Below, in pieces: positions 2,314 to 55,016 of a stretch of 64,000 bases of DNA; position 1 is the first letter of the stretch; the number at the start of each line of letters is the position of its first letter. The notes under the pieces are model-generated. The model saw nothing but the letters and a program-made list of their open reading frames with translations. It did not search any database and had not been told where the DNA came from. This stretch comes from an uncultured Bacilli bacterium (lineage in GTDB: Bacteria > Bacillota_I > Bacilli_A > RF39 > UBA660), in contig CAKOHW010000002.1 in NCBI GenBank assembly GCA_934086185.1, positions 31,377-95,376 on the forward strand. The letters run 5' to 3'. A program made the translations under genes and the position numbers.

Positions 2314-2670
2314 TTATACCCATCTAGAAAAATATATATTTCTTGTATAACCTTCTTGGTACTTTTCAAATATCTTTAAAATTGCATTTATCATAACATC
2401 AATTATATTACTTCCTCTTTTAATACGCAATTTTAATAATTCATTTTGAGTTTCTTTTCTAAAACTATAATCATCTATATATTTAGATAAAACATAATCT
2501 AAATCTTCTATCTTTTTTAATTCATCTTTATTGTTTTCATCTATATTAAATATGTAATCACTATAAATATTAATAATTTTTAAAGTTATAAAATCTTCTT
2601 CATCGAATTCAAAATTATTAATTCTATAATAATTAGGACAATGACTTAAAATTATTTTATTTTTCTTCAT
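2314..2670 (-). CDS. hypothetical protein (118 aa)
   Basis: Clean ORF between two terminator-like regions. No recognisable motif. Confidence 0.5.
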   Translation of the reverse strand: MKKNKIILSHCPNYYRINNFEFDEEDFITLKIINIYSDYIFNIDENNKDELKKIEDLDYVLSKYIDDYSFRKETQNELLKLRIKRGSNIIDVMINAILKIFEKYQEGYTRNIYFSRWV

Positions 2671-2712
2671 ATTATCACTACCTTCAAGTATAATTCAATT
2701 ATAATATATGAT

Positions 2713-2745
2713 AAAAAAAAAGTCTACATTTGTAGACTAATTTTT
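2713..2745 (-). terminator. intrinsic terminator after the 505-aa surface protein gene
   Basis: Hairpin AGTCTACA-TTT-GTAGACT (2721-2738) flanked by an A8 run and T5. On the minus strand the stem is followed by a U-run. Confidence 0.75.
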
Positions 2746-2746
2746 A

Positions 2747-4264
2747 TTAAATTTGTTTAAATAAATTCTTTTTCTTACTTACGTAATATATTCCACCAGC
2801 AATAGCACCTACAGCTACAAAACTAATTATATAAGATACTATACCAGTTTTTCCATTAGTTGTTGTTCCAGTTTGTCCCCATTGAGCATATAGAATAACT
2901 GTTTTACTTTTATCACTAGTTATTTTGCCACCAGCATTTACACATTGTCCAGAACCATTTGGATTTGTACACCATTGTTTAAATGTCCATCCATCTCTAG
3001 TTGGTCCTTCAGCAACATCAACTGTTGCATTAAGTGCAATATTAGTTACTTCATCTGGAATGTTATTTACTGGATTACCATCAGCGTTTGCATCATATTT
3101 TAAGTTCCAGTTTCCTTCAGTTGGATCTTCAGAAGTTGAACATGTTTTATATTCAACGCTTAATACAAAAGGCCAATAATAAGAACCATATACATCAAAA
3201 TCTATATTTGCTGTAGTTGATGGATTATTGTCAAATGTAGACTTTTCTACAGTTCCAACTTGTATACATTTACCAGCTACTATACAATCTTTACTTCTTC
3301 CACCATTTTCTTTATATTCAGTACTTTCTATCCATTCTTTATAAGAATCATAACTATTTTTTATTGAATCATCAACTATATCTTTAACTGATTTTCCACC
3401 ATCTCTTAAAGTATCAGCTTTGGTTTTTCCATCAGCTCCAGATACTCCATCTATATTTCCAAATACAAATAAAGTTCCATCATTTGTAGCATATCCAAAT
3501 TTTTTATCACTTAAATCAGATGCATTACTAAGTTTTCTTGTTATGGAAATAGGCATAAAATATTTTTTAGCAGAAATATTATATGAAAGTAACGATTCAT
3601 CCACTGCACCATCAACATCATCTATTAAATTTTGTAAAGTCTTTGTATCAAAAATTTCACTATCAGGTACTTCACTATTATTTTCATATTTACCACGATT
3701 AATAGTTGTTGAAATTCCTGAATAATCTATATTTTTTTGAATTGTATGAATTTTAAATATATTTTCGTCATTTAATTTATCCCAACTATTAGATATAGGA
3801 TTAAAATTAGCATCATAGTTTGACCACTCACCATGTAATAATATTGCTGATGTATTATATTTACTGCCTTCAGGAAGAGTCGTAACAAATGAATTACCAT
3901 ATACTTTATAATCAGTATCAATCTTATAATATTCATTATTTTTACTTTTCTCTATCGCAGAATTATGCATTAAAAAGTAATCATGTATATTGTCGTCAGT
4001 AGTAACGTTATTAGACGTAACCTTTACTATTTCGGTTCCTTGAGGAAATTCAAACGGAAATTGAGTAGTAGTTTGATATCCTTTAGAACTATAAACATCC
4101 AAAATATTTCCAGCATAAAGTCCATTAACATCTAAAAATAAATAATTCTGTAAATGATATTGACAATCATCATTTGCTGCTTTAACTTTTGGTAAATCCA
4201 TAAACGGAATTAATACTGCTAAAGCTAAACCAATAACCCCAAGTTTTTTTATTATTTTTTTCAT
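2747..4264 (-). CDS. secreted/anchored surface protein with a Listeria-Bacteroides-type repeat and a C-terminal TM anchor
   Basis: N-terminal signal peptide (…DLPKVKA). C-terminal TRDGWTFKQW…VILYAQW repeat, then a hydrophobic segment plus KKK tail. No LPXTG seen. Confidence 0.75.
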   Translation of the reverse strand: MKKIIKKLGVIGLALAVLIPFMDLPKVKAANDDCQYHLQNYLFLDVNGLYAGNILDVYSSKGYQTTTQFPFEFPQGTEIVKVTSNNVTTDDNIHDYFLMHNSAIEKSKNNEYYKIDTDYKVYGNSFVTTLPEGSKYNTSAILLHGEWSNYDANFNPISNSWDKLNDENIFKIHTIQKNIDYSGISTTINRGKYENNSEVPDSEIFDTKTLQNLIDDVDGAVDESLLSYNISAKKYFMPISITRKLSNASDLSDKKFGYATNDGTLFVFGNIDGVSGADGKTKADTLRDGGKSVKDIVDDSIKNSYDSYKEWIESTEYKENGGRSKDCIVAGKCIQVGTVEKSTFDNNPSTTANIDFDVYGSYYWPFVLSVEYKTCSTSEDPTEGNWNLKYDANADGNPVNNIPDEVTNIALNATVDVAEGPTRDGWTFKQWCTNPNGSGQCVNAGGKITSDKSKTVILYAQWGQTGTTTNGKTGIVSYIISFVAVGAIAGGIYYVSKKKNLFKQI

Positions 4265-13327: not shown

Positions 13328-15874
13328 TTATTTACATAATCGTTTTAATTCATTATTAATAAATTCTAATCTATTCTTTTCTAATTCTAACGCTTCTCTA
13401 TCTTTCATTACTACTTCTTTAGGAGCTTTATTTACATAATTTTCATTACTTAATAATTTTTCACGTCTTCCTATACTATTTAATAAAGTATCTTTTTCTT
13501 TTTCTAATACACTTATTTCATTATCAATATTACTACTATTATCAAAATAAATACTAATATCATAATCATATAAATTTACATTTACTTTATCATTATATGC
13601 AGATTTATTAACAACTTTATCATTTAATTTTAATAAATCAAATAATAACTTATTTTCTACATTTGTTATAACTTCAAATTCTTTACCACAATTAATATCA
13701 TGTAATTTATTTCTAAATAATGTTACATATTCTAATAATTCTTTTATTTCTTTTTCTTCTTTAGTATATTCAAAATCTCTATCATATTCTGGATACTTAC
13801 TAATCATGATAGACTCACTATCTTTATTAGGCAACATCTTATATATTTCCTCAGTTACATAAGGCATAAATGGATGTAACATTTTTAATATATTAATTAA
13901 TACAGTTAACAATACAGACTTAGTAGTATCATTTTGATTAAATTTACTCATTTCTATATAATTATCACAAAAATCTGTCCATATGAAATCATATAATGTT
14001 GAACCAACTATATTAAAATCATACTTTTCCATATGTTTAGTAACTAAAGTAATAGTACTATTCATTTTACTTAAAATATATTTATCTTGTTTATCTAAAT
14101 TATCATAAGTAAAATTATCCATATCAAAATCTTCCACATTCATTAATACATAACGTGATGCATTCCATAATTTATTAATGAAATTCCATACACCTTTAAC
14201 TTTTTCTTCATCATATCTTAAATCTTGTCCAGGTGCAGAACTACTTGCTAAGAAAAATCTTAATGAATCAGCTCCATATTCATCAATAACATCCATAGGA
14301 TCTACTCCATTACCAAGACTTTTAGACATTTTTCTTCCAATTTTATCTCTAATTAAACCATGTATTAAACAATCTTTAAATGGTCTTTTATCAGTTAAAT
14401 ATAATCCTTGGAATACCATTCTACATACCCAAAAGAAAATAATATCATACCCAGTAACTAAAACATCAGTTGGATAATATTTTTCCAAGTCACTAGTCTT
14501 ATCTGGCCATCCAAAAGTACTAAAAGGCCATAAAGCACTTGAAAACCATGTATCTAATACATCTTCATCTTGTACCCATCCATCTTCACTTGGAGCAGTT
14601 TCACTTACATAAACTTCATCGCCTTTATACCAAACTGGTATTCTATGTCCCCACCATAATTGACGAGAAATACACCAATCATGACAATCTTCCATCCAAT
14701 GATTTAATATTTTTTCAAATCTTTCTGGAACAAAATTAACTTTTTCTTTACTGTTTTTTTGAGTATCTAATACTCTTTTTGCCAAAGTTTCCATACGTAC
14801 AAACCATTGTTTAGATAAATATGGTTCTACCATAACTCCAGTACGTTCAGAATGTCCTACTGAATGTGTTATAGGTTCTATTTCAATTAATAATCCACTA
14901 TTTTCTAAATCTTCAACTAATCTTTTTCTACATTCAAATCTATCTAAACCAGAATATATACCTGCATTATCATTCATAGTACCATCTGGATTTAATACTT
15001 TTATACGTTCAAGATTATGTCTTTCTCCTACTTCAAAGTCATTAGGATCATGTGCTGGAGTAATTTTAACTACACCTGTACCAAATTCAGGATCAGCATG
15101 CAAATCAGCAATAATAGGAATTTTTTTATTAACTATTGGTAATATTACATACTTTCCAACATACTCACTATAACGTTCATCATTTGGATTAACTGCAACA
15201 GCAGTATCTCCAAATAATGTTTCAGGTCTAGTTGTAGCAACACGTAAATACTTTTCAGTCCCTTCTATATAATATTTTAAATGATAAAATGCACCTTCTA
15301 CATCTTTATATATAACTTCTTCATTAGATAATGCAGTTTTTGCTTCAGGATCCCAATTAATAATACGTTCTCCTCTATAAATTAAACCTTCATTATACAT
15401 TTTTACAAATGTTTTAGTAACTGCTTTATTTAAACCTTCATCTAAAGTGAAACGTTCTTTTGAATACGCTAAAGATAAACCTAATTTACCCCATTGACTT
15501 CTTATATTAGAAGCATATTCTTCTTTCCATTTCCAAGCCTCTTTTAAGAATCCTTCACGTCCTAATTCATATTTATTTATTCCTTCACTCTTTAATCTTG
15601 CAACAACTTTAGCCTCAGTCGCTATAGCAGCATGATCCATTCCAGGTAACCATAAAGTATCAAAACCTTGCATTCTTTTAAATCTAATTATAATATCTTG
15701 TAAAGTAGTATCCCATGCATGTCCTAAATGTAATTTACCAGTTACATTAGGAGGTGGAATAACTATAGAAAATTTACCTTTATTATTATTTGTAGGTTCA
15801 AAATATCCTTTACCTTTCCAATTTTCATACTTTCCTTCTTCTACACTTAAATGATTATATTTCTTATCTAACAT
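13328..15874 (-). CDS. valS: valyl-tRNA synthetase
   Basis: 848 aa. HIGH region [18 protein letters not shown] motif, C-terminal coiled coil. Confidence 0.97.
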
Positions 15875-16595
15875 AACTATTCACCCTTTCATCAATATAC
15901 TTATTAACATAATCAAAATATTCTTTAAACATCTCTTTATTAATAATTTGACTATATATCTTATCAATAAGTTTATTATCTTTCAAATGTTTAAAAGAAT
16001 AATCATAATTTAAATCAAATACAAAAGCCAAATATAATAATACTTTATCATTTAAACTCTTAACATCTTTATAACTAATAACTTTTCTATTATAAAAATC
16101 ATCTTTAATCTTATCACTAATAGGTTCATTACATTCCATTATTAACTCTTTATCAATACTAAAAAGATAAAATATATCTAACTTATCAGCATCTCTAACA
16201 ACTTTACAAATCTTTTTATTATGTTCACTTATATTAGTAGGTATAAAAGCTTTATTATGATACTTAATAACATCATAAATTTCATCATACATACTAATAT
16301 CTTTTTCATAATCTAATATTTCACTATTACCAAATAATAAAGAAACACCCAAATCTCCATGATCTATAGAATGTATATCACTATAAGTTTCATAATCTTT
16401 CCACTGAGTAAATCTCCCATAATCATGTAATAAACCACTCACAGTACATATATGTTCATCCTTAATATCAAAATTAGATTTTTTAGCAATAGCAGTTGCA
16501 ATATCCATAACTCTTAAAGAATGTTCATATTTATACTTAATCTCTCTTATATTCAAATCAAATTTTTTAACATAATCATAAAATACTTCTTTCAT
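15864..16595 (-). CDS. HD-domain phosphohydrolase
   Basis: HD motif ([10 protein letters not shown]…DHGDLG). Its stop overlaps the valS start by 11 nt, suggesting translational coupling. Confidence 0.75.
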
Positions 16596-16616: not shown

Positions 16617-16830
16617 AAAAAAACACGTATATTTCTAAGGACGAAATACCGTGTTACCACCTTAATTCATGTATAATAATACATCTCAATACTTTAACGC
16701 AGTTAACGTAATATTCTACTAAATTCAAATATTCTGCTCCATCGCTACCTTCTATTAATTCATTTATTAGTTTACACCAACCACTAACTCTCTATAAAAC
16801 AAATTAATATACTCCTCAACTTCATTGCAT
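16617..16830 (-). promoter_or_regulatory. T-box leader controlling the HD-valS operon
   Basis: Minus strand shows the stem I motif AGAGAGUUAGUGGUUGGUG (about 16775-16795). The T-box sequence AAUUAAGGUGGUAACACGG lies at about 16649-16667. It overlaps the terminator ACACGGUAUUUCGUCCUUAGAAAUAUACGUGU + U7 (16617-16655). Upstream promoter TTGAAA(16861-16866)-17-TATAAT(16838-16843). Candidate Val specifier GUA at 16746-16748. Confidence 0.85.
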
Positions 16831-16931
16831 TTTCTATATTATAAATTATTTATTTTATTTTTTCAATAAAAACTTATTGAGTTATAAATTATTTTATTAT
16901 ATAATAATTCTAGAATAGAAAGAGGTGTAAT

Positions 16932-18335
16932 ATGGAACAAGAAAATAATATGTATAGTGATATAATTGCACCTCAAGAAAGCAACGCAAGTGAAAATAAA
17001 ACATTCATGAAAACATATGATTATGACAATGTTGCAATAACTGACATTGTTAATAACATTATAATAGATTCTATAAATAATAAAGCATCAGATATACACT
17101 TCAATCCTACCGAAGACGGTATAGTTATAAGGATACGTATAGATGGTGAATTAAGAAATTATGCTAAAGTACCAGGATATGTAAAAAAGAATATGATTAC
17201 AAGAATAAAAATATTAGCAGGTATGAATATAACTGAAAGTAGAGTCCCTCAAGATGGAGCTATAAAGCAAAAAATATTAGATAAAGACGTTGACTTGCGT
17301 GTGTCTTCACTTCCTACTAATATGGGTGAAAACATAGTTATTCGTATCCTAGATTATACAATGAGTAGTCAAGGAATAGAAACACTAGGTTTTAACGAAA
17401 CAAACTTAAAAAAATTAATTAAAATGATGAGTGAACCAAATGGTATTATATTAGTAACTGGTGCTACTGGATCAGGTAAATCAACAACAGTATACTCTAT
17501 TCTACAAAGACTTAATACTACAGATAGAAATATTATTACAGTAGAAGACCCAATAGAAATGAATATACCCGGTATCAACCAAGTACAAGTTATAAGTGAT
17601 ATTGGATTAACATTTGCAGCAAGCCTACGTAGTATATTACGTCAAGACCCCGATATAATAATGATCGGAGAAATAAGAGACGACGAAACTGCTCAAATAG
17701 CAGTTCGTGCATCAATCACTGGACACTTAGTACTATCTACAATACATACAAATAGTGCATTAAATACTATAGAAAGATTACTAGATATGAATATTGAAAG
17801 ATACTTACTAGGTACTGCACTTACAGGTATCATAAGCCAAAAATTAACTAAAAAATTATGCCCATATTGTAGAGAAACTAGACCAACAAATGATTATGAA
17901 AAGAAAGTATTTAAAAATAGTTTAAATTTAGACATTAATGAAATATATCAAGCAAAAGGCTGTGACAAATGTCACGAAGGCTATAAAGGCCGTGTTGCAT
18001 TACACGAAGTATTATTAATAGATCAAGAAATAAGAGATGCTATAACAAATAATATGAGAAAAGACGAATTAAGAGATTTAGTTTATGGAACAGGTACTAT
18101 AACAATGTTACAAGATGGTCTAACAAAAGTAATAAACGGTGATACTACATTTGAAGAATTAATGAAAGCAATAGATATTGATGATAGCGACCTAACAAGT
18201 GATGGATTAAAAGAGTCTCTTATAATAGCAGAAAAAAATAAAGATATTTTAAAAAATAACGCAAACTATAAAAAACTACAAGAAAAAAATGATACTGATT
18301 ACGAAGTATTCGACCTAGATTTCTTAAACAAATAA
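16932..18335 (+). CDS. GspE/PilB-family secretion/type IV pilus assembly ATPase (orphan)
   Basis: Walker A GATGSGKST, Asp/His boxes, tetracysteine CPYC…CDKC. TTGAGT-17-TATAAT promoter at 16877-16905. No pilC/pilD/pilin genes in the window. Confidence 0.85.
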   Translation: MEQENNMYSDIIAPQESNASENKTFMKTYDYDNVAITDIVNNIIIDSINNKASDIHFNPTEDGIVIRIRIDGELRNYAKVPGYVKKNMITRIKILAGMNITESRVPQDGAIKQKILDKDVDLRVSSLPTNMGENIVIRILDYTMSSQGIETLGFNETNLKKLIKMMSEPNGIILVTGATGSGKSTTVYSILQRLNTTDRNIITVEDPIEMNIPGINQVQVISDIGLTFAASLRSILRQDPDIIMIGEIRDDETAQIAVRASITGHLVLSTIHTNSALNTIERLLDMNIERYLLGTALTGIISQKLTKKLCPYCRETRPTNDYEKKVFKNSLNLDINEIYQAKGCDKCHEGYKGRVALHEVLLIDQEIRDAITNNMRKDELRDLVYGTGTITMLQDGLTKVINGDTTFEELMKAIDIDDSDLTSDGLKESLIIAEKNKDILKNNANYKKLQEKNDTDYEVFDLDFLNK

Positions 18336-18358
18336 AAAGCCATAAAAGGCTTTTTTAA
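18334..18358. terminator. bidirectional terminator between the ATPase gene and paralog P1
   Basis: AAAAAGCC-ATAAAA-GGCTTTTTT between convergent genes. Confidence 0.6.
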
Positions 18359-20244
18359 TTTTCTAAAATTTTATACGGATTATCTATTGTTCCATCTCCA
18401 CTCAATAATTGTGAACCAGTAGCTAAAGTAATTGAAGGACGAACAGTTGCAAAAGTTTCTTTAGATTCAAGAGCAAGTAAACTATTATCTATATTTACAT
18501 AAGCAACACTATCACTATATCCATCGAAGAAAAATGAACGAGACAAAGTCCAATATATAGTTTGTGAGTTAGTATATAAATAATTTCCTCTACATGCATT
18601 ATATACTTCGAATGCAATATTTCCAGCATATATAATTTCATCCGCTGTTAATGTTCCTATATAATCACTTACACTATCTTCTTCACTTGAACATTTAAAC
18701 GTAGCAGTTTTATCTCCACCTACACCCATCATTCTTTTTCCTACCAAATAAAGATATCCACTTTTATTATTTTCTAATGTTAATGCTTCATCTGTTGTTA
18801 ATAATGCACCTGTATCATTACTATATTTATAACCATCACTGCCTCCCAAACACCACTTTTCATTTTTTAAATATAATTTCTTATCTTCTAATCCACTTGA
18901 TATATACCATGTTTTTAATGTTGTATATAATCCTCCACTATAATTTTCATAATCAGCATAATATTTGCTATTAATTGTTTTATAACCATATGCTATTTTT
19001 GCCCCATTATTTATTAAAGCAGATGTTGTATCTGATGATGTTATTGTACTACATAACCCCTCTTTTGCTAAGATTATTTTTATACTTCCATCACCTTCTA
19101 CACGTACAACTCTCCAACACATATTATTAAATTCTATATAATTATCTTTTACTCCACCCCTATAATAATAACTATAACCATAATCATCTTCTGCCATAGA
19201 TAATGTTGATTCTGTCGGATATGATACTGCTAACATTTTTTTGATTTTTATTGATACTGAACTTGTACTGCTTACTGGAGCTTCCGTTACTTTATATATA
19301 TTTTCTAAATCCGTCGTTGTTTTTTTAGTATCTGTACTTGATGAATTATTATATACATAATTATCTACTAAATATTTTCCAATTAATGTTTTATTACATG
19401 TTCCGTCATTATACTTGCATGTAGAAACTCCTGTTAATGTGAATTTACCAGTACTTTCATCAACTTTATACCCAGTTCCATATGTCCAATAGTAACCCTG
19501 ATATGTTGTTGAGACATTATATATTAATCTTTCATCTATTTCTTCAGTTGCTCTATCAGTATAGTATTTATAATTAGGTATTTCTTGAGCCGGAATTGTT
19601 AACGGAGTTGCACTAAATGTTGTCCCATTATTTTCTAACTTTGCATTATTTATTATTGCATAAGCTAACGTTGTTGGTTCATATGGCATAAATTCCCCAT
19701 TAATATTCTTACTAAATATTTGTAATTTTGCTTGTAATATTTTTCCCATATCCACACTTTGATCTGTACCTGTATCTTTATATGTGAATGTAAATGTATA
19801 TGTATGTGTTTTTTTAGGCTCTATTTCATTTGTAACTAACTCTTTTATGCCGTTTGGAAAGGTTGTCTCTATTGTTACTTTGTTACATGCTATAGTTCCG
19901 TTAGTACTACAGTCTAATGTATATTTTATATCATCAGTTCTTTCAAATGTATTTACAACATCTATTAAATATAAACCATATTCTATATTTACATTTCCTT
20001 CGTTTTTTACTGTGAATGTTTTAGTATATTCAGTATTACTTGGAAATAAGTTTTCTCCACCTACTACCCCATCACTACCATCATTATATACTAATAATAA
20101 ATCTGCCGCTGTTACATCTATAGATTTATTATTAGTGTTTCCTTGTATTCTTGTTAAATAATATCCATATGTTAAACCAATAAGTGCTAAACTTACTATA
20201 GATATTCCTACAATGCTTATTATTATTTTTTGTTTTCTACTCAT
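18355..20244 (-). CDS. paralog P1: exported protein with a TasA/camelysin-like head (divergent type a) and tail type alpha
   Basis: N-terminus MSRKQKIIISIVGISIVSLALIGLTYGYYLTRIQGNTN resembles a SipW-type signal. Head motifs …KTFTVKNEGN… The C-terminal module …DDYGYSYYYRGGVKDNYIEFNNMCWRVVRVEGDGSIKIIL…YWTLS…VRPSITL… ends in GDGTIDNPYKILEN. Confidence 0.9.
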   Translation of the reverse strand: MSRKQKIIISIVGISIVSLALIGLTYGYYLTRIQGNTNNKSIDVTAADLLLVYNDGSDGVVGGENLFPSNTEYTKTFTVKNEGNVNIEYGLYLIDVVNTFERTDDIKYTLDCSTNGTIACNKVTIETTFPNGIKELVTNEIEPKKTHTYTFTFTYKDTGTDQSVDMGKILQAKLQIFSKNINGEFMPYEPTTLAYAIINNAKLENNGTTFSATPLTIPAQEIPNYKYYTDRATEEIDERLIYNVSTTYQGYYWTYGTGYKVDESTGKFTLTGVSTCKYNDGTCNKTLIGKYLVDNYVYNNSSSTDTKKTTTDLENIYKVTEAPVSSTSSVSIKIKKMLAVSYPTESTLSMAEDDYGYSYYYRGGVKDNYIEFNNMCWRVVRVEGDGSIKIILAKEGLCSTITSSDTTSALINNGAKIAYGYKTINSKYYADYENYSGGLYTTLKTWYISSGLEDKKLYLKNEKWCLGGSDGYKYSNDTGALLTTDEALTLENNKSGYLYLVGKRMMGVGGDKTATFKCSSEEDSVSDYIGTLTADEIIYAGNIAFEVYNACRGNYLYTNSQTIYWTLSRSFFFDGYSDSVAYVNIDNSLLALESKETFATVRPSITLATGSQLLSGDGTIDNPYKILEN

Positions 20245-20275
20245 ATTAACTCAAACTTCCTATCTTTATACTTAA

Positions 20276-20326
20276 AGTTTATCAAATCATTTTATTATTT
20301 ACAATATACAAATTTTGTTTTATACT
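20276..20326. promoter_or_regulatory. back-to-back divergent promoter module (P1 copy)
   Basis: Minus strand: TTGTAA(20299-20304)-17-TGaTAAACT(-10 at 20276-20281). Plus strand: TTTACA(20298-20303)-17-TATACT(20321-20326). The two -35 boxes overlap by 5 nt. Confidence 0.55.
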
Positions 20327-20332
20327 TAATTT

Positions 20333-20400
20333 AGTAGAACATCTAATTGATGGCTACCGTTTTTTTGGTAAGTGCTAATTATTTAATTAGCACTATTTTT
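20333..20400 (+). ncRNA. candidate cis-antisense sRNA (antitoxin-like), copy 1
   Basis: Starts about 7 nt after TATACT. Hairpin GTGCTAATTA/TAATTAGCAC (20372-20393) + TATTTTT acts as a plus-strand terminator. Complementary to the 3' end of the minus-strand small-ORF RNA. Confidence 0.45.
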
Positions 20401-20565
20401 ATGACCAAAACTCCCTATTATCTATATAGAAGGATGAATAGGAATACAATTACCATAATGATAATTGAACAGTCTAAAAACCTTATAATGAAAGTTTTTA
20501 CTTTCAAGCTAAGTACCTACTTTTTCTACTTTAAAAATAGAAGGTAGCCATCAAACCAAATGTTC
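20337..20565 (-). other. structured small-ORF RNA (type I toxin-like mRNA), copy 1
   Basis: Promoter TTGAAA(20596-20601)-16-TATTAT(20574-20579). The 5' arm GAACAUUUGGUUUGAUGGCUACC pairs with the 3' arm GGUAGCCAUCAAUUAGAUGUUC: about 22 bp with 3 G-U pairs, which works only in the minus-strand RNA. Confidence 0.55.
20418..20507 (-). CDS. 29-aa hydrophobic peptide (type I toxin candidate), copy 1
   Basis: TTG start sits in the hairpin UGAAAGU-AAAA-ACUUUCA. Peptide MKVKTFIIRFLDCSIIIMVIVFLFILLYR. Conserved with copy 2 through mostly synonymous or conservative changes. Confidence 0.5.
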   Translation of the reverse strand: MKVKTFIIRFLDCSIIIMVIVFLFILLYR

Positions 20566-20641
20566 AAGACACTATAATACTCATATAATTTATTATTTCA
20601 ATAATTTCGAAAAAACATTACAAAAAAAGAAATTACATAAA

Positions 20642-20818
20642 CTATAATTCCTTATCTTTATACATAATTAAACTACTAAAACAATATATTTGTTCTTCAC
20701 CAGATATTCCAATACTAACATTAAATTTAATATCAATAATATCTTTCCCTTCTATAAAAGAATTTATTGAATTTTCTAAATCACTTTCATGTCCTTCATC
20801 AAATACTTTTACTTTCAT
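20642..20818 (-). CDS. sporulation protein Cse60-like (58 aa from the internal ATG)
   Basis: MKVKVFDEGHESDLENSINSFIEG…EEQIYCFSSLIMYK matches my memory of the Cse60 family. The ORF-track TTG start at 20842 is probably an over-extension. Confidence 0.55.
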   Translation of the reverse strand: MKVKVFDEGHESDLENSINSFIEGKDIIDIKFNVSIGISGEEQIYCFSSLIMYKDKEL

Positions 20819-23600: not shown

Positions 23601-24941
23601 TTAATCAGTATCAAGATAACATATTTGTGAACCATTTCCAATCAGGAATAAAATATTATTATCAAAAATCTCATTTAAAATAGTAGTATCATCCGGATAT
23701 GCCACTTTAGTACTAAGTTGATCCAAATATTCAACATCAGGTGAATATTCTCTTAACGCTATATATCCTATGTTTTCAAACATAGTAGTATGTGTATAAT
23801 AATATAACATATCATCATCAATTAAAGATAAATTTTTACTACAACTCTCTTTATAAGAAGATGTACTATTTATTTTGTTCTTCGCATCAAGTCCAGTAAG
23901 TATTTTTTGGTTACTTTTTAATTCATTAATATACTCACTTTTTAACCAATCATTTATTGTCATGTCCTTATTTATTCTAACTATATAAGGCCCTGAACAT
24001 ATACTACTATTATTTATACAATCACTTAAATGCATATCTCCCAGTGAAGCAGTAATAGGAATGTATAATTTATATTTTTTACTAAGTCCATCACTAACAC
24101 CTGATATTGTTTTTGTTATTGAATTATCTGTTACATTTATATTTATCTCTGCTATTCTACTTGTATCATCTATAGTTATTACATCATCTTCAATTGATTG
24201 TGATTCTCCTTTTTTTATAACTAAATCTGTATTTAAATTTTTAGATGTCTTTCTATTCTTTATTGTTATCTTATGTGTATCTGGTTCTATTCCAACAAAC
24301 TTATATTTTCCATCTACTATCTCACTTGTTTGTTCTTTACTATTGATTACTACATAGTCATTTTCACTAGAATTTGTTACTGTTCCTTGTATAGTAAGTG
24401 CCTTTGTATCAAATATATCTATCTTTGCTTCTAATGTTTTACCCATATCAATACTTTGGTCTACATTCATTTCTTTATATTCTACTTCTATTACATATGT
24501 CTGTACTTCTTTTGAATCAATTTGATTTTCTATTATATATGAGTTTTCATTTGGAAATGTACTTTCACTTACTCCATTACATGTTTTACCAGTTACACTA
24601 CTAGAACATGTTACAGTATATTTTATATCATCTAATCTTGTGAATGTATTTATTACATTTACTAATCCTACACTATAACTATCTACATTATTATCTCCAT
24701 TATTTGTTACGGTAAATGTTTTAGTTCCTAATGTTGTACCTGGTACTATATTTGTTCCAGTTATTACATCACTATTATCACTGTATGTTAGTTCTAGATT
24801 AGCAGTTGATATACTTATTGATTTATTATTAGTATTTCCTTGTATTCTTGTTAAATAATATCCATATGTTAAACCAATAAGTGCTAAACTTATTATACTT
24901 ATTCCTACAATACTTATTATTATTTTATTTTTTCTACTCAT
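23601..24941 (-). CDS. paralog P2: head type b plus unique tail type delta
   Basis: The first ~231 aa are near-identical to P5 and P3 (MSRKNKIIISIVGISIISLALIGLTYGYYLTRIQGNTNNKSISISTANLELTYSD…). The C-terminal ~200 aa are unrelated to the other copies. Confidence 0.9.
   Translation of the reverse strand: MSRKNKIIISIVGISIISLALIGLTYGYYLTRIQGNTNNKSISISTANLELTYSDNSDVITGTNIVPGTTLGTKTFTVTNNGDNNVDSYSVGLVNVINTFTRLDDIKYTVTCSSSVTGKTCNGVSESTFPNENSYIIENQIDSKEVQTYVIEVEYKEMNVDQSIDMGKTLEAKIDIFDTKALTIQGTVTNSSENDYVVINSKEQTSEIVDGKYKFVGIEPDTHKITIKNRKTSKNLNTDLVIKKGESQSIEDDVITIDDTSRIAEININVTDNSITKTISGVSDGLSKKYKLYIPITASLGDMHLSDCINNSSICSGPYIVRINKDMTINDWLKSEYINELKSNQKILTGLDAKNKINSTSSYKESCSKNLSLIDDDMLYYYTHTTMFENIGYIALREYSPDVEYLDQLSTKVAYPDDTTILNEIFDNNILFLIGNGSQICYLDTD
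24248..24941 (-). repeat. head-type-b DNA block (P2 copy)
   Basis: Near-identical to the 5' ~0.7 kb of P5 and P3. The spurious antisense ORFs 24398-24604 and 44086-44292 translate almost identically. Confidence 0.7.
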
Positions 24942-24961
24942 ACAAACTCTCCTTAAACATC

Positions 24962-25028
24962 AAAAAAATTATATAATTATTAGCTCCTGACAAAACTTTT
25001 GTTCAAGAGAGAATTAGGTTATATAATT
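24962..25028 (-). promoter_or_regulatory. conserved leader hairpin + U-tract (terminator/attenuator-like), P2 copy
   Basis: Minus-strand RNA AAUUAUAUAA…CUUGAACAAAAGUUUUGUCAGG…UUAUAUAAUU then U7, ending about 20 nt before the AAGGAGAG SD of P2. Confidence 0.55.
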
Positions 25029-25198
25029 CTGTGCTTTTATAAAATATTTTTTAATTTCGAGTACTTTCTACTCTATATAAACTATATCAAATTTTCTGAA
25101 TTTTGCATAGTATTTTTTATTATTTTTAAAAACGTTTGATCTAATTCATAACTATCAAATCAAATTTAACTTATTATACAATATAAAAACAGATAACA

Positions 25199-32796: not shown

Positions 32797-34719
32797 TTAA
32801 TTCTCTAAAATTTTATACGGATTTGCCTTTGTTCCATTTCCGCTTGAAATTTGTGTATTTGACTTAAAATTAATTACCGGTCTAAATGAGTAGTCATCAT
32901 TAACTCTTCCTCCACTAAATAATCCAGAACTATCAAGCAGATAAACATAATCACCACCGCTTTGATACATAGTAGGTAAGGCATCACTACGATTGCTATC
33001 AAAATCGCTAGGTGCTAAAGTCCAAAACTCTAAGTGACTTGATTTTTGATAATTATTTATTAAATAATAAGCAAGATTTTCAGTATCACCATTATCTCCA
33101 CCTGCAAAAGAAATTTCATCTGCTGTTAAAGTCCCAACATACATATTTGTATTGTCTGCAAACTTTTTCATATTTGTACCCTTACATTTTAGTGTTGGTT
33201 CTTCTGCTGTTCCTTTTCTCAAACGAGTACTAGAATCATAATAAAACCCTTCATTCGCAATTTGTTCATCTAATATTTCAACACTAGTTAATTCTTTTGA
33301 ACTACTAGAGATTAAATACGCTTTATTATTTAAACACCAGTCTCCAACCTTTAAATAAGATAAATAACTCGTTAATAATCCAATTTGAAAATTTTTAAAT
33401 GCAGTTACCATTGATTTATCATTATTTGTTTGTCCGTTTAAATAATTCATTAAATATCTTATACCTCGGTTTTTTTTACCATCAGATGCAGTTAATGTAT
33501 TTGCTGCATATTGTGTATATCCAAAATATCCAGTCTTTATAGACCCACCAGTTGTAGTTGGTATATCCCAATTTCCATCAGCCGTTTCACAAGTACTATC
33601 TTGATCTTCTAATATTAATTTAATACTTCCATCGCCAACAATACGAACCACTTTCCAACACATTCCTGCAAAATTAACATAATTATCAGTTACATTTCCT
33701 CTAAAGTAATAAGAATTACCATAGTCATCAATTGCTAAACTTAATGTTCTTTCATTTTCTCCATTTATTTCTTTTGCTGGTTTAGTTAATGGTGTTTCAC
33801 TATATATCGTTCTTCCTTCTCCACCTTTTTTAGCATTGTTTATTATTACATCTTTCAATAAAATTTTACTATCACTTATTTTTATTACATTTATTGTTAC
33901 AGTACTACCCGTTATTGTTATATCAGCATCTGCTATATTCTTTTCATCGTTGTATGTTATATTTGATCCTGATGCTGATGGTTCTCCTTTTGATACATTT
34001 AGTGTTGTTTGTTTTGTTGTTGTAGTCTTTCTATTTTTTATTGTCACTTTGTGTGTATCTGGTTCTATTCCAATAAACTTATATTTTCCATCTACTATCT
34101 CACTTGTTTGTTCTTTACTATGTATTACTACATAATCATTTTCACTAGAATTAGTTACTGTTCCTTTTATTGTTAATGATTTAGTATCAAATATATCTAT
34201 CTTCGCCTCTAATGTTTTACCCATATCAATACTTTGGTCTACATTCATTTCTCTATATTCTACTTTTATTACATATGTTTGTACTTCATCTTTATTTATT
34301 TGATTTTCTATTATATATGAGTTTTCATTTGGAAATGTACTTTCACTTACTCCATTACATGTTTTACCAGTTACACTACTAGAGCATGTTACTGTATACT
34401 TAACATCATCTAATCTTGTAAATGTATTTATTACATTTACTAATCCTACACTATAACTATCTATATCACTGCTACCACTATTTGTTACTGTAAATGTTTT
34501 TGTAGGTAAAGTTGTACCCGGCACTATATTTGTTCCAGTTATTACATCTTTATTATCGCTATATTCTAATTTTAAATCTGCTGTTGTTACACTTATTGAT
34601 TTTGTATTAGTATTACCTTGTATTCTTGTTAGGAAATATGCGTATGTTAATCCTAATAATGCTAATAATACTATTGCTATTCCTACTACGCTTACAATAA
34701 TTTTTTGCTTTTTATTCAT
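32797..34719 (-). CDS. paralog P3: head type b, shared stalk, tail type beta
   Basis: Head and stalk are near-identical to P5 through about residue 297. The tail (…NYVNFAGMCWKVVRIVGDGSIKLILEDQDSTC…) is homologous to the P6 tail. Ends GNGTKANPYKILEN. Confidence 0.9.
   Translation of the reverse strand: MNKKQKIIVSVVGIAIVLLALLGLTYAYFLTRIQGNTNTKSISVTTADLKLEYSDNKDVITGTNIVPGTTLPTKTFTVTNSGSSDIDSYSVGLVNVINTFTRLDDVKYTVTCSSSVTGKTCNGVSESTFPNENSYIIENQINKDEVQTYVIKVEYREMNVDQSIDMGKTLEAKIDIFDTKSLTIKGTVTNSSENDYVVIHSKEQTSEIVDGKYKFIGIEPDTHKVTIKNRKTTTTKQTTLNVSKGEPSASGSNITYNDEKNIADADITITGSTVTINVIKISDSKILLKDVIINNAKKGGEGRTIYSETPLTKPAKEINGENERTLSLAIDDYGNSYYFRGNVTDNYVNFAGMCWKVVRIVGDGSIKLILEDQDSTCETADGNWDIPTTTGGSIKTGYFGYTQYAANTLTASDGKKNRGIRYLMNYLNGQTNNDKSMVTAFKNFQIGLLTSYLSYLKVGDWCLNNKAYLISSSSKELTSVEILDEQIANEGFYYDSSTRLRKGTAEEPTLKCKGTNMKKFADNTNMYVGTLTADEISFAGGDNGDTENLAYYLINNYQKSSHLEFWTLAPSDFDSNRSDALPTMYQSGGDYVYLLDSSGLFSGGRVNDDYSFRPVINFKSNTQISSGNGTKANPYKILEN
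33828..34719 (-). repeat. head-b + stalk DNA block (P3 copy)
   Basis: About 0.9 kb matching 43741-44629. Antisense ORFs 33836-34135 and 43746-44045 are near-identical. Boundaries are approximate. Confidence 0.7.
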
Positions 34720-34769: not shown

Positions 34770-36644
34770 TCATTCACTAATTAATTCACTTTTTGAGATA
34801 AATCCTTTATATAATTTTGCACCATATACCGATCCATTTCTATTAGAATTGGCAACATTAGTTTTAGACAACATATAAACTGCAATTTTAGAAACTGTTA
34901 TTGAATCATTTGTAATAAAATGCATTACATATTTATCATCATCAACCCATGTATATTTTACTTGAGTTAAATAGTTGTTATTTCCAAAATTGTTAGCAAA
35001 TATAGCAGGATAAATATCAGGATATTCTTCAGTTCCAAATTTTCCATTTAAATATAATGTATATGGTGTATTAGGTTCTAAATTAGAACTTAAATTATAT
35101 TCTTTAATCTTTGTCGTTGTTGCTCCATTATAATTTAATACTTGTTCTTCACCATTAGTTATAAGATTTGTTTTTGCTACGTTATTATTAGAAATAATTG
35201 GAAATCTTGCAGCCATAACCGCTCCATTTGAATATCCATTATTAGAACCAGCGTCAGTAATATCAGAAAATAAATTAATAACTTGAAAGCCAACCAAATT
35301 ATTAGTTGTATTATTAGCATGGTAAACTAATAATCTATCTCCAGGCAATCTATCAACCACAAATGATGCATGAGTAATACCTTTATAATAATTTGATTCA
35401 AATGTAGAAAAGAATATAATATCACCAGGTTTTACATTACTTACATCGTTATTTAATTTATAAGAATAACCATTTTCATCAGCATAGTGTGCTAAATCAT
35501 TAGCCAAATATCTTCCTTCTCTGTATTTATTTGTTGGTAAAGTAATACCATAATCAAAGGATTTTATATTAGTATTATTTGAATTATATCTTGAATCATT
35601 ATAAGTTATACCCCCTAATACTAAACTAAGAAAACTAGAACAATCTAACTCATTTGTAGTAGTAGTATCAAAGGCAGTCTTTGCTGAAGCAAACGTTAAA
35701 TTAGCCATATTATTTCTGTAAGTTTGTGCTACACTGAACATATCAACAATAGTACCTAAAGAATAAGGTGCTAAAAAAGATTCATCATCATAATACGTTA
35801 TTCCACCAATTTCAATAACGTTATTAGAAACATCTAAATCAATTTTTATATTTTTTATATTAGAAGTAATAGTAATAACATTTGCATCTATACTAGCTGT
35901 ATTTCCTTTTTTGATTGTTATTTCTTTACTTTCTTTTACAGTTCCCTGTTTATCTTTTACATATATTGTATGAGTCCCTGGTTCTACTGCTGCTATCAAA
36001 TATTTATTATCTGTTGTTATCATACTTTTTCTCGGGTTGCTATGTAATTCAACATAATCTCCCTCACTTACATTTGTTACTGTTCCTGTTACATCTACAA
36101 TATCTTGTAAATTATAGATTTGTACTCGTGCTGATACTTTCTTATTCATATCATCACTTTGGTCTACATTCATTTCTTTATATGTTACTGTTAATTTATA
36201 TGTTTGTGTTTCTCCTACATCTATTGAATTAGTTACAATTATTCCTGCTAATTTTGGAAATGTTGTTTCATTAACTCCCTTACATGTTTTATTTTCTTTA
36301 CTACTTGTACAAGTTAATGTATAAACCATATCATCAGGCCTTGTTAATTCATTTACTAATTCTTCTAAATATACAGCATAGTTATTTACAGTTGCATTAC
36401 CATTATTTGTTACTGTAAATTCTTTGTCAGTTAATGTAGTACCTGGCATAATATTATTACTTGTTATAGTACCATTACCATCTGCATAAGTTAACTCTAG
36501 ATTAGCAGTTGTTACACTTATTGATTTTTCATTAGTATTCCCTTGTATTCTTGTTAAAAAGTATGCATATGTTAATCCTAACAATGTTAAAAGTACTATT
36601 GTTATTCCTACTGCACTAACAACTATCATTTTTTTTCTTTTCAT
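34770..36644 (-). CDS. paralog P4: head type c fused to an NlpC/P60-like cysteine peptidase module
   Basis: ATG at 36642-36644 with an AAGAGGT SD is preferred over the ORF-track start at 36662. The first ~252 aa are near-identical to P6. The tail has LDCSSFLSLVLGG (Cys), GDIIFFS…THASFVV (His). 50-nt gap to P3. Confidence 0.85.
   Translation of the reverse strand: MKRKKMIVVSAVGITIVLLTLLGLTYAYFLTRIQGNTNEKSISVTTANLELTYADGNGTITSNNIMPGTTLTDKEFTVTNNGNATVNNYAVYLEELVNELTRPDDMVYTLTCTSSKENKTCKGVNETTFPKLAGIIVTNSIDVGETQTYKLTVTYKEMNVDQSDDMNKKVSARVQIYNLQDIVDVTGTVTNVSEGDYVELHSNPRKSMITTDNKYLIAAVEPGTHTIYVKDKQGTVKESKEITIKKGNTASIDANVITITSNIKNIKIDLDVSNNVIEIGGITYYDDESFLAPYSLGTIVDMFSVAQTYRNNMANLTFASAKTAFDTTTTNELDCSSFLSLVLGGITYNDSRYNSNNTNIKSFDYGITLPTNKYREGRYLANDLAHYADENGYSYKLNNDVSNVKPGDIIFFSTFESNYYKGITHASFVVDRLPGDRLLVYHANNTTNNLVGFQVINLFSDITDAGSNNGYSNGAVMAARFPIISNNNVAKTNLITNGEEQVLNYNGATTTKIKEYNLSSNLEPNTPYTLYLNGKFGTEEYPDIYPAIFANNFGNNNYLTQVKYTWVDDDKYVMHFITNDSITVSKIAVYMLSKTNVANSNRNGSVYGAKLYKGFISKSELISE
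35888..36644 (-). repeat. head-type-c DNA block (P4 copy)
   Basis: About 0.75 kb near-identical to 54002-54758. Antisense ORFs 35915-36232 and 54029-54346 are near-identical. Confidence 0.7.
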
Positions 36645-36861
36645 ATTTGTACCTCTTTTCATATTTTAATATCTTTATAATTTAATTATATATAACATCT
36701 AATGATTATTAATGTCAAAAAATGTCATAACACACAAAAAAAATTATATAACTACTTCTATTAATAAATTTAAAATCAGAAAAAATAAATTATATACTAT
36801 TTACTTATCACAACATAAAATTCAAACTCATACTCATAAGAGTACTTTCTACTCTATTTAT

Positions 36862-36912
36862 ATTTTATCAAATCATTTTATTATTTACAATATTAAAATT
36901 TTGGTTTATACT
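36862..36912. promoter_or_regulatory. back-to-back divergent promoter module (P4 copy)
   Basis: Minus strand: TTGTAA(36885-36890)-17-TGaTAAAAT(-10 at 36862-36867). Plus strand: TTTACA(36884-36889)-17-TATACT(36907-36912). Confidence 0.55.
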
Positions 36913-36918
36913 TAATTT

Positions 36919-36990
36919 AGTAGAACATCTAATTGATGGCTACCTGTTTTTTTGAGATATGTGCTAATTATCTAATTAGCACATTTTTTA
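36919..36990 (+). ncRNA. candidate cis-antisense sRNA (antitoxin-like), copy 2
   Basis: Downstream of TATACT. Terminator ATGTGCTAATTA-TC-TAATTAGCACAT + T6 (36959-36990). Confidence 0.45.
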
Positions 36991-37150
36991 AACCAAAACT
37001 CCCTAAAATCTTCGTAAGAGGATATATAGAAAGATGATTAACATTATGATAATCAAACGGTCTAAAAACCTTATGATGAAAGTATTTACTTTCAAACTAA
37101 GTACCTCCTAACTATTTAAAAATAGAAGGTAGCCATCAACTTAAATGTTC
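36923..37150 (-). other. structured small-ORF RNA (type I toxin-like mRNA), copy 2
   Basis: The 5' arm GAACAUUUAAGUUGAUGGCUACC pairs with the 3' arm GGUAGCCAUCAAUUAGAUGUUC. The anti-SD UACCUUCUA pairs with the SD UAGGAGGUA (9 bp). TATTAT -10 at 37159-37164. Confidence 0.55.
37003..37095 (-). CDS. 30-aa hydrophobic peptide (type I toxin candidate), copy 2
   Basis: AGGAGG SD 8 nt before the TTG. Peptide MKVNTFIIRFLDRLIIIMLIIFLYILLRRF. Confidence 0.5.
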   Translation of the reverse strand: MKVNTFIIRFLDRLIIIMLIIFLYILLRRF

Positions 37151-37227
37151 GAGACACTATAATACACTAAAATATTAAAAAATTTGTCACATTTTGAAAA
37201 AACATAAAAAAATAATCAAATTAATGA

Positions 37228-44641: not shown

Positions 44642-44761
44642 TACTTTCCATCATAACTAGTTTATCAATTTTTTTATTCAATTTGAACAAACAACTTTAT
44701 TGTTTTTATTATAAATTACAACTTATGAATAATTTGTCAAATTAAATACTTACAAAAATAC

Positions 44762-44827
44762 AAAAAATCATATAATTATTACCCTCTGACAAAACTTTTG
44801 TTTAAGAGAGTATTAGGCTATATAATT
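44762..44827 (-). promoter_or_regulatory. conserved leader hairpin + U-tract, P5 copy
   Basis: Same element as at 24962-25028. The outer stem carries one G-U pair in the minus-strand RNA (plus-strand T to C at 44769). Confidence 0.5.
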
Positions 44828-44882
44828 CTGTACTTTTATAAAATTGTTTTTTTATTTTCAAGTACTTATCTACTTTAACTAC

Positions 44883-44933
44883 ATTATACATTAACAATTT
44901 ATTATTTACAATACTTATATTTTATTTTATAAT
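44883..44933. promoter_or_regulatory. back-to-back divergent promoter module (P5 / kinase-like ORF copy)
   Basis: Minus strand: TTGTAA(44906-44911)-17-TATAAT(44883-44888). Plus strand: TTTACA(44905-44910)-17-TATAAT(44928-44933), facing the ORF at 44961. Confidence 0.55.
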
Positions 44934-44960
44934 ATCAAACGCAAAAGCGAGGAATAATAT

Positions 44961-45677
44961 ATGTCTATAATAAAAATCAGTGAATCTTATATTAAAGAAC
45001 ATTATGACAAATTAGAAACTATAAAAAAAGAAAAACTACACAACATGGAAAGTGATTTATACGTTAATAGAAAATATATTTACAAAGTAATAGAAAGATT
45101 TTTAAGAAAATCTAAAGAAAGTAATATAAAAGAAATATATAAAATAATCTTTCCAAGTGCAATAAATATAGTTGATTTATTATACGATAATAATAATTTT
45201 ATTGGAATTACAAATTATTATTTAGAAGATTTTATAACATTAAAAAAATATATGAATAATTTAGATCTATATGAAATAAAAGAAATAATGAAAGAATTTA
45301 TATCTTTTTATAGATTTGCATTATCAAAAAAAATGTTATATTGGGATATTCATTTAAACAATGTTGGAATAAGTAATGGTAAAGTATATGTATGTGATAT
45401 AGATTCTATGGATGCAAAAGACTACAGTTGCATTGATATTAAATATACACTTAATTCTATTCTTTCTTTATTTTATGAACTATATTATAAAGAATCAATT
45501 AGATCAAATTATGATAATAGTTTAGAGTTGATAAGTGATATAAGTGAATCACCTAAATATTTATTTCATGATTTAACACTTAAAGATGTAAAAGATATTA
45601 TAGAAAGTTCTACAATAGATTATTTAGAAGAAAAAAGATTATTATTAAAAAAAGCTGAAAAAATACAAAAAGTTTAG
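44961..45677 (+). CDS. small protein-kinase-like-fold protein (K1)
   Basis: 238 aa. Catalytic-loop-like WDIHLNNVG and DFG-equivalent VCDIDS. GAGG SD. Confidence 0.6.
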   Translation: MSIIKISESYIKEHYDKLETIKKEKLHNMESDLYVNRKYIYKVIERFLRKSKESNIKEIYKIIFPSAINIVDLLYDNNNFIGITNYYLEDFITLKKYMNNLDLYEIKEIMKEFISFYRFALSKKMLYWDIHLNNVGISNGKVYVCDIDSMDAKDYSCIDIKYTLNSILSLFYELYYKESIRSNYDNSLELISDISESPKYLFHDLTLKDVKDIIESSTIDYLEEKRLLLKKAEKIQKV

Positions 45678-54758: not shown

Positions 54759-54834
54759 ATTTTTACCTCTTTCCTTCTAATTTTATATTACACTTATAAT
54801 TTATTTGTATAAAATTAAGGTGAGGATGAAATAC

Positions 54835-54906
54835 AAAAAAATTATATAATTATTAACCCCCCCCCCGACCAAACTTTTGTTCGGGAGAGAATTAGGCTAT
54901 ATAATT
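54835..54906 (-). promoter_or_regulatory. conserved leader hairpin + U-tract, P6 copy (contains the C10/G10 tract)
   Basis: Same element. The inner stem is changed to CCCGAAC…GGUCGGG, and the G10 run pairs with CUCUCCC. Confidence 0.5.
54857..54866. repeat. homopolymeric C10 tract (G10 on the coding strand)
   Basis: Ten consecutive C in an extremely AT-rich genome. It replaces the 6-nt GCTCCT/CCCTCT of the paralogous leaders. Confidence 0.9.
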
Positions 54907-54959
54907 CTGTGCTTTTATAAAATATTTTTTAATTCCGAGTACTTTTCTACTCTAGTTAT

Positions 54960-55010: not shown

Positions 55011-55016
55011 TAATTT

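Follow-up and report, generated by a model that had tools for sequence, protein, structure and literature searches.

A candidate new family of type I toxin-antitoxin modules in several chromosomal copies in an uncultured gut Bacilli bacterium

A probable toxin-antitoxin cassette

A cassette of about 300 bases, located on the minus strand at 20298-20601 (copy 1) of a 64,000-nt stretch of contig CAKOHW010000002.1 (positions 31,377-95,376), is probably a chromosomal type I toxin-antitoxin (TA) module present in several copies. This whole stretch is called the window here, and cassette coordinates follow its numbering. Two RNAs can be predicted from the cassette. The first is a toxin RNA of ~235 nt, whose first ~23 nt pair with a segment located ~185 nt downstream and thereby form a closing helix (H1) around an open reading frame (ORF) for a small hydrophobic peptide. 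The second is a convergent antisense RNA of ~70 nt. The comparative set consists of 16 distinct copies or alleles, divided into two subtypes, type A (10 sequences, including copy 1) and type B (6 sequences). We regard the peptides as candidates for a new toxin family, comprising two subtypes, and the antisense RNA as a candidate new antitoxin of this uncultured lineage of low-GC gut Bacilli. Systems of type I easily escape detection, because their toxins and antitoxins are short, unannotated and unrelated from one family to another. The host organism is known solely from gut metagenomes and uses genetic code 11.

The features of copy 1 are listed below, where the consensus is the type A consensus structure and SD stands for Shine-Dalgarno.

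20601-20574, minus strand: toxin-RNA promoter TTGAAA-16-TATTAT, with a predicted start at ~20567-20570, a few nt ahead of the 5' arm
20565-20543, minus strand: 5' arm of H1, GAACAUUUGGUUUGAUGGCUACC, 23 nt, beginning ~9 nt past the -10 box
20539-20546, minus strand: anti-SD UACCUUCU, whose UACC is common to the inner end of H1; consensus helix 2, with 95% of cells paired
20515-20521, minus strand: SD region, AGUAGGU in copy 1, 7 nt ahead of the UUG
20489-20506, minus strand: start-codon hairpin UGAAAGU-AAAA-ACUUUCA, enclosing the UG of the UUG (20507-20505); consensus helix 4, 98.6% paired
20507-20418, minus strand: UUG-initiated ORF of 29 codons plus stop, MKVKTFIIRFLDCSIIIMVIVFLFILLYR, a putative membrane toxin of type A with a coding pattern
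20358-20337, minus strand: 3' arm of H1, GGUAGCCAUCAAUUAGAUGUUC, main target of the antisense RNA
20298-20326, plus strand: antisense promoter TTTACA-17-TATACT, with an identical box in copies 2 and 3
20333-20402, plus strand: predicted antisense RNA of ~70 nt, the putative antitoxin, deduced from promoter and terminator prediction
20371-20394, plus strand: antisense terminator hairpin followed by a T-run, with one terminator-like site per region vs. 0.0-0.1 expected

Several of these features had been proposed in an original prediction for this locus. The minus-strand TTGAAA-16-TATTAT promoter, the two arms pairing over about 22 bp with three G-U pairs, and the 29-codon ORF with its UUG start inside a UGAAAGU/ACUUUCA hairpin were all recovered at the positions given above. 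The type I hallmarks that it invoked were each found at the sequence level and are conserved in the 16 distinct copies or alleles, among them the ORF (by its coding pattern) and the stem (H1 in 16/16). Promoter-like hexamer pairs are not above chance in DNA of 24% GC (6 seen vs. 5.4 expected), and we therefore drew support for promoters only from conserved positions across copies. The toxin promoter box of copy 1 is also present in copy 3 (55310-55283) and in loci L015 and L016.

Folding of the toxin RNA

The 241-nt RNA of copy 1 has a folding energy of -76.3 kcal/mol, vs. -40.9 +/- 4.3 kcal/mol for dinucleotide shuffles (z = -8.2), and none of 200 shuffles folded as well. With the same type of shuffles, z-scores of -7.8 and -7.5 were obtained for copies 2 and 3, respectively, and the same closing helix appears in the folds of all three window copies. 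H1 comprises 22 bp in copy 1, including 3 G-U pairs (3/22), and 25 bp in type B. It is present in all 16 distinct sequences. Between the two subtypes, the outer 6 bp and the inner 4 bp are common; the ~13 bp in between have another sequence on each arm and nevertheless pair. Among the sequence comparisons, this one is the strongest structural evidence. Moreover, with its 1-3 G-U pairs and its bulges, H1 is workable only in the minus-strand RNA.

The consensus structure of type A consists of H1, an anti-SD:SD helix (UACCUUCU:AGGAGGUA), the start-codon hairpin, a terminator hairpin and a long-range helix (UUUUUAGACC/GGUUUAAAAA) around two hairpins inside the ORF. Over the 10 sequences, 96.7% of the cells are paired, and sliding the partners by 1-3 columns cuts this pairing to 35-52%. 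Seven pairs show compensatory change, a number reached by 3 of 500 shuffles, although the close relatedness of the type A sequences inflates this significance.

Two elements of this structure are expected to limit translation of the toxin mRNA, as in type I TA systems, namely the anti-SD:SD helix and the start-codon hairpin, the latter being present in both the minimum free energy (MFE) fold and the consensus fold. The original prediction had placed the SD region opposite an anti-SD. This pairing is part of the consensus structure. The SD is AGGAGGU in 9 of the 10 type A copies and AGUAGGU in copy 1, and this weakened SD leaves a single U-U mismatch in the helix. The anti-SD also tracks the SD across subtypes (CCUUCU/AGGAGG in type A, CCUC/GGGG in type B).

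The encoded peptide

The ORFs have 25-30 codons, and the putative toxins are 29 or 30 aa long in type A and 25 aa long in type B. All are strongly hydrophobic (GRAVY of 1.0-1.85) and end with basic residues (R, RRF, RKL or RG). They display the usual traits of type I toxins (PMC6563280), i.e. fewer than 60 aa, a hydrophobic composition, one predicted transmembrane stretch and charges at the end. The 29/30-codon frame is kept in 9 of the 10 distinct type A sequences. Variable sites at codon positions 1, 2 and 3 number 6, 4 and 13, respectively, pairwise dN/dS ranges from 0.06 to 0.34, and the replacements are conservative (I/L/V, F/Y, R/K/Q). The four intact type B alleles encode MRNQ[TA]FERLLIL[LI]MLSTLILLLFRG, with 3 synonymous and 2 conservative differences. 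The peptides of the two subtypes can be aligned ([DE]RL[IL]I.IML...R); homology between them is not established by this alignment of sequences. A 66-aa ORF on the plus strand (20347-20547) was rejected as a gene, as it is broken in other copies.

Gene callers did not call the toxin ORF in any assembly examined. The peptide had originally been described as matching no recognizable family, which agrees with our searches in Pfam, NCBIfam and PHROGs (no match at E<=10) and among 1.84 billion protein representatives. BLAST against known toxin sequences returned short hydrophobic matches only, a result that is no more than indicative. At the RNA level, scanning the whole window with Rfam at gathering scores gave only a T-box, and permissive scans (E<=10) of copies 1 and 3 gave nothing credible.

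The convergent antisense RNA

The antisense promoter is close to the consensus (10/12 matches) and nearly invariant, in contrast to the variable toxin promoter. A stronger promoter for the antitoxin than for the toxin is usual in type I TA systems. We scanned six copies lying in different contexts, and all of them have TTTACA, TTTATA or TTTAAA at 17 nt from TATACT, then a hairpin ~45 nt downstream with a T-run on the antisense strand only. The -35 boxes of L015, L016 and L018 are TTTACA, TTTATA and TTTAAA variants. Furthermore, the exact 20-mer of the antisense promoter was found in all the loci collected independently of this pattern (L003, L038-L054), except L045. The terminators of types A and B are unrelated in sequence and occupy the same relative position. 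In these six copies, the antisense gene is therefore predicted to have its own promoter and its own terminator, as in type I TA modules.

In the predicted antisense RNA, a 5' segment of ~37 nt has little structure and is complementary to the 3' arm; the terminator hairpin and a U-run come next. It is perfectly complementary to the 3' untranslated region (UTR) of the toxin RNA, including the 3' arm of H1, and ends ~16 nt short of the toxin stop codon (U-run end at ~20402; stop at 20418-20420). A plus-strand TTTACA-17-TATACT with a hairpin and a T-run was already part of the original prediction and is present at 20298-20326 and 20371-20394. That prediction also had the short RNA complementary to the 3' end of the ORF RNA, an end which is assumed, given that this strand has no terminator (see below). 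In copy 1, the -35 box of the antisense promoter overlaps, back to back, the minus-strand -35 box TTGTAA (20304-20299) of the downstream gene encoding a 629-aa protein.

A possible regulatory switch

The analysis shows the anatomy of the cassette, how it is conserved, its coding signature and its thermodynamics, and from there we infer expression of the two RNAs, toxicity of the peptide, action of RNase III and the direction of the switch. A sigma-A-type promoter would produce the toxin RNA of ~235 nt, closed by H1 and carrying the ORF of a single-helix hydrophobic peptide. A stronger and invariant convergent promoter would produce the ~70-nt antisense RNA, ending at its own intrinsic terminator. 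The UACC of the anti-SD could then pair with either the 3' arm or the SD. In the nascent toxin RNA, the anti-SD would pair first and the RNA would be off. In the free full-length mRNA, H1 would compete for the UACC, leaving the SD partly open and the RNA partly on. Once the antisense RNA takes the 3' arm, the 5' arm would be displaced, a full anti-SD:SD helix of 8 bp would form and translation would be shut off. By analogy with known systems, the ~70-bp toxin:antisense duplex would then be a substrate for RNase III and would decay.

The modelled energies are consistent with this scheme. The duplex between the first 40 nt of the antisense RNA and the 3' arm has ~-65 kcal/mol, vs. -29 to -34 kcal/mol for the pairing of the 5' arm with the 3' arm in H1; capture of the 3' arm by the antisense RNA should be favoured because of this difference (-65 vs. 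about -31 kcal/mol). When the antisense target was masked by constraint folding, the probability that the SD is unpaired fell in 7 of the 10 copies (e.g. from 0.26 to 0.00 and from 0.46 to 0.00) and never rose. Deleting the 3' arm in the folding model lowers this probability likewise.

Copies and distribution

Searches with nhmmer profiles of both subtypes and with BLAST found exactly three copies in the window and no further ones. The extents of the matches are 20245-20642 for copy 1, 36844-37223 for copy 2 and 54953-55348 for copy 3. Copy 2 is 82% identical to copy 1. Copy 3 matches copies 1 and 2 at its ends and differs over its central ~200 nt, and hence defines type B. The features of these two copies are the following.

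36884-37190, minus strand: copy 2 (type A), whose ORF (37095-37003) encodes MKVNTFIIRFLDRLIIIMLIIFLYILLRRF
37150 (start of the 5' arm) and 36944-36923 (3' arm), minus strand: arms of H1 in copy 2
36884-36912 and 36959-36984, plus strand: antisense promoter and terminator of copy 2
54982-55310, minus strand: copy 3 (type B), with its 5' arm at 55274-55250 and its 3' arm at 55047-55021
55215-55138, minus strand: ORF of copy 3, toxin-null, with an in-frame TGA at 55194-55192
54982-55010 and 55057-55076, plus strand: antisense promoter and terminator of copy 3

Genomes were scanned with 19-mers, and at least five copies were found in the Hadza metagenome-assembled genome (MAG) CAKORH01 ("uncultured Bacilli bacterium"), the nearest GTDB representative. 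Five other genomes, all from unrelated taxa, also gave matches; we took them as chance, four having no further similarity and the fifth (L014) only a 41-nt match. The same scan of metagenomes and viral contigs yielded two more copies (L019 and L020), the remainder looking like chance, with L036 left unchecked. Strain-level contigs (L003, L038-L054) were reached via the flanking proteins. BLAST of plasmid and phage collections gave no match to the cassette.

Short-read contigs break at the cassette, and this repeat accounts for the contig breaks of the organism at cassette sites. One could then suspect a non-coding repetitive or mobile element, similar to a MITE or a REP, in which the inverted repeats matter as DNA and the ORF and promoters are incidental. 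The several copies of the cassette, the contig breaks, the 22-25-bp inverted repeats, the different contexts in related genomes and the insertion sequence (IS) elements next to it in some strains would fit. However, the inverted repeats lie inside the conserved block and not at its ends, the helix is specific to one strand owing to its G-U pairs and bulges, and the substitutions in the ORF follow a coding pattern. In addition, the T-run of the terminator lies on one strand only in every copy, and plasmids and phages are without a match. We consider a purely DNA-level element highly improbable.

Each of the three window copies is immediately upstream of a member of one family of secreted-protein paralogues, in the same orientation. 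The genes next to the cassette in MAG CAKORH01 are unrelated, e.g. a P-type ATPase-like ORF that it precedes, and the cassette is therefore an autonomous module rather than a leader specific to secreted-protein genes. The opposite view would be that of a cis-regulatory 5' leader or promoter cassette, in which the fold, a leader-peptide ORF and the antisense RNA control read-through into the surface-protein gene. The position and orientation of the three window copies would agree with it, as would the lack of a toxin-strand terminator in six copies and the fusion of the antisense -35 box with the promoter of these paralogues. But the downstream genes are preceded by a promoter of their own that also exists at 44890-44940, away from any cassette, and three of the six paralogues have no cassette. 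Purifying selection on the ORF peptide also exceeds what a leader peptide needs, and the genes that follow the cassette in CAKORH01 are unrelated. A leader for the downstream gene is, in our opinion, unlikely.

Natural alleles and counter-evidence

Some alleles have lost the ORF. In window copy 3 and in five other contigs at the same locus, a patch of 5 substitutions creates a TGA at codon 8, and intact type B alleles exist at this locus (L048 and L050). L016 has a 4-nt deletion at the very spot of the TGA patch. In both type B null variants, the hairpin at this spot and the fold of the whole RNA are retained or even strengthened. In type A, one extra A directly follows the start codon of L010, which points to a frameshift or else to an error in the assembly. 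Reading of the copy 3 TGA as Trp (genetic code 4) was rejected, since TGA ends 5 of 43 long ORFs and the intact alleles have AGA there. Together with the helix-broken alleles described below, these toxin-null alleles are ready mutants for tests of the mechanism.

Such alleles also bear on the function of the peptide, which could be a small membrane protein with a benign role (modulator of a membrane protein, sporulation or stress peptide) whose level is tuned by a cis-antisense regulator, outside any TA system. The same anatomy would fit, and the C-terminal charged cluster of 1-3 residues is shorter than in many type I toxins (PMC6563280). Yet the module is multicopy and stands alone, SD sequestration and a start-codon hairpin lock translation tightly, the antisense RNA has the stronger promoter, which does not vary, and knock-out or silencing alleles that retain the RNA fold are recurrent. 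Several copies, a tight translational lock, a strong antisense promoter and null alleles that keep the fold are a typical signature of toxic peptides. To our knowledge, benign small proteins are rarely duplicated together with an antisense partner. A benign peptide thus appears rather unlikely to us, and a toxin remains the probable identity.

Several observations weigh against a type I TA module. The ORF RNA of copy 2 has a good -10 box (TATTAT) but lacks a canonical -35 box. All the sequences come from one narrow lineage (80-93% identity), and covariation within each subtype is limited, which adds to the inflated shuffle significance mentioned above. The phmmer search with the 30-aa peptide gave 0 matches among the 1.84 billion representatives, and an exact-product look-up was also empty. 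In L038 and L041, at the copy-2 locus, the inner half of H1 is broken and uncompensated, reducing the helix to 12-13 bp. There, GAUGGCUACC in the inner 5' arm is replaced by GUUUGUCUUCC, and the anti-SD is longer. With its intact ORF, this form may be a natural 'translation-locked' allele. The proposed direction of the switch comes from thermodynamic modelling alone. Finally, no intrinsic terminator was found on the toxin strand past the 3' arm in 6 of the 6 copies scanned. The 3' end of the toxin RNA is therefore assumed and not seen, and read-through into the downstream gene is possible. Possible origins of this end are read-through, trimming as far as H1 and interference at the antisense promoter.

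Because the toxin RNA has no terminator and the antisense promoter is fused to that of the secreted-protein family, we also envisaged, with little expectation that it is right, a portable regulatory cassette. Here the antisense RNA would be a '5'-arm mimic' that flips the RNA clamp by strand displacement, coupling peptide synthesis, downstream read-through and the divergent surface-protein promoter. If true, this would link type I TA to the control of surface-protein expression or variation.

Relation to known type I systems

The definition-level features of type I TA were taken from PMC6563280 and PMC8594479, and by these features the cassette is, as far as its sequence goes, a type I TA module. 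Its closest mechanistic match appears to be bsrG/SR4 specifically, which refines the original comparison with several Firmicute systems. In the bsrG mRNA, nt 1-35 pair with nt 232-262 to form helix P1, and binding of SR4 was shown experimentally to make nt 1-33 single-stranded and to lengthen the helix containing the SD, which grows from 4 to 8 bp (PMC3834814). Like this system of the Bacillus subtilis SPbeta prophage (TxpA/BsrG group), the cassette has a long 5'-3' closing helix with branches on top, a short helix that contains the SD, a convergent antisense RNA covering the 3' arm of the closing helix and a small hydrophobic peptide. In both, antisense binding would free the 5' arm and lengthen the SD helix, an effect that is experimental for bsrG and modelled for the cassette. 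The two differ in several respects. The antisense RNA has ~70 nt in the cassette vs. 180 nt for SR4 and, unlike SR4, does not overlap the ORF, ending 16 nt away from it. The peptide has 25-30 aa vs. 38 aa, with two toxin subtypes on one scaffold. Past its closing helix, the cassette has no terminator stem-loop, unlike bsrG/SR4. It occurs in several chromosomal copies, no prophage being evident, and neither BsrG nor any Rfam family resembles it in sequence. No match to the TxpA/BsrG family (BsrG/TxpA, SR4/RatA) was obtained in Rfam (E<=10), Pfam or NCBIfam. The logic of bsrG/SR4, i.e. a 5'-3' clamp with a 3'-binding antisense RNA that tightens the SD remotely, would then be a recurrent design and not the peculiarity of one prophage.

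T1TAdb describes for fst/RNAII and sprA1/SprA1AS a short antisense RNA that overlaps only the 3' UTR (PMC8594479). The cassette resembles these systems of Enterococcus faecalis (pAD1 par) and Staphylococcus aureus, respectively, in its convergent genes, its antisense RNA of ~60-70 nt with 3' UTR-only overlap, its toxin of ~30 aa and its sequestered ribosome-binding site. Their antitoxins use additional complementarity to the toxin 5' region, whereas the corresponding duplex of the cassette is no better than shuffles. Such pairing in trans was rejected for the cassette, as the duplex with mRNA nt 1-100 (-18 to -27 kcal/mol) equals the shuffled mean. Unlike that of Fst, the terminator is not bidirectional, its U-run being on the antisense strand only. 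The Pfam scan of the peptide gave no family match, the Fst toxin family included if Pfam holds one.

The toxin mRNAs of hok/sok and aapA1/IsoA1 are held inactive by fold-back and become active after 3' trimming, and their antisense RNAs bind to the 5' part. The cassette shares with them the long-distance 5'-3' pairing that closes the full-length toxin mRNA. Unlike in these systems, its antisense RNA targets the 3' arm, and the SD becomes less accessible when this arm is removed in the model. We rejected a hok-like activation of the cassette through trimming of the 3' end, the folding model pointing in the opposite direction. No Pfam match of the peptide to Hok_Gef was found.

The type I toxins of Clostridioides difficile (CD2517.1-RCd8 and others) have 34-59 aa, an N-terminal transmembrane segment and a lysine-rich tail, and are linked to prophages and CRISPR arrays (PMC6563280). 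The cassette is similar in its convergent overlapping genes, in its unannotated toxins without homology to other families, in its several copies and in its gut Firmicute host, but no sequence similarity to the C. difficile toxins is detectable. As it shows no sequence membership in any named family, the cassette would represent a new family of type I TA.

Neighbouring genes

Six paralogous secreted or surface proteins are encoded on the minus strand of the window, at 18355-20244, 23601-24941, 32797-34719, 34770-36662, 42476-44641 and 52596-54758. They share a signal-anchor and an N-terminal domain of ~180 aa (46-85% identity), and their C-terminal parts are variable and mosaic. No Pfam or NCBIfam family matches them. 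They resemble a family of variable surface proteins, and a cassette lies ahead of three of them. Their promoter, TTGTAA-14-TGn-TAAAAT on the minus strand, is fused back to back with TTTACA-17-TATAMT on the plus strand through a common -35 region. Such fused promoters occur at 20276-20326, 36862-36912, 54960-55010 and 44890-44940. At three of these sites, the plus-strand promoter would drive the antisense RNA; the cassette-free one (44890-44940) faces a gene at 44961-45677 (plus strand).

A conserved 5' leader of ~125 nt separates the paralogue promoter from the start codon (24942-25085, 44735-44885 and 54800-54955, minus strand). It contains several hairpins, the final one being AT-rich and followed by a U-run, and had no match in a permissive Rfam scan. 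This leader may be an uncharacterised attenuator or a riboswitch-like leader. Inside the leader of the paralogue of 720 aa, a run of 10 G (54857-54866, minus strand) is conspicuous in a genome of 24% GC and is a candidate slipped-strand phase-variation tract.

IS elements adjoin the cassette in some strains. In L045 (~2396-3402) and L050 (~3436-4083), an ORF of 420 aa replaces the secreted-protein gene after the cassette. That of L045 matches the DDE_Tnp_1 transposase, and the antisense -35 region is altered at this locus; for that of L050, there is no Pfam match on record.

The T-box leader found in the window (16634-16834, minus strand; RF00230, 121.6 bits) lies upstream of the genes at 15864-16595 and 13328-15874. 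A gene for a PilB/GspE-type secretion ATPase (16932-18335, plus strand) is convergent with that of the 629-aa paralogue, and this ATPase may be relevant to the export or assembly of the paralogue family.

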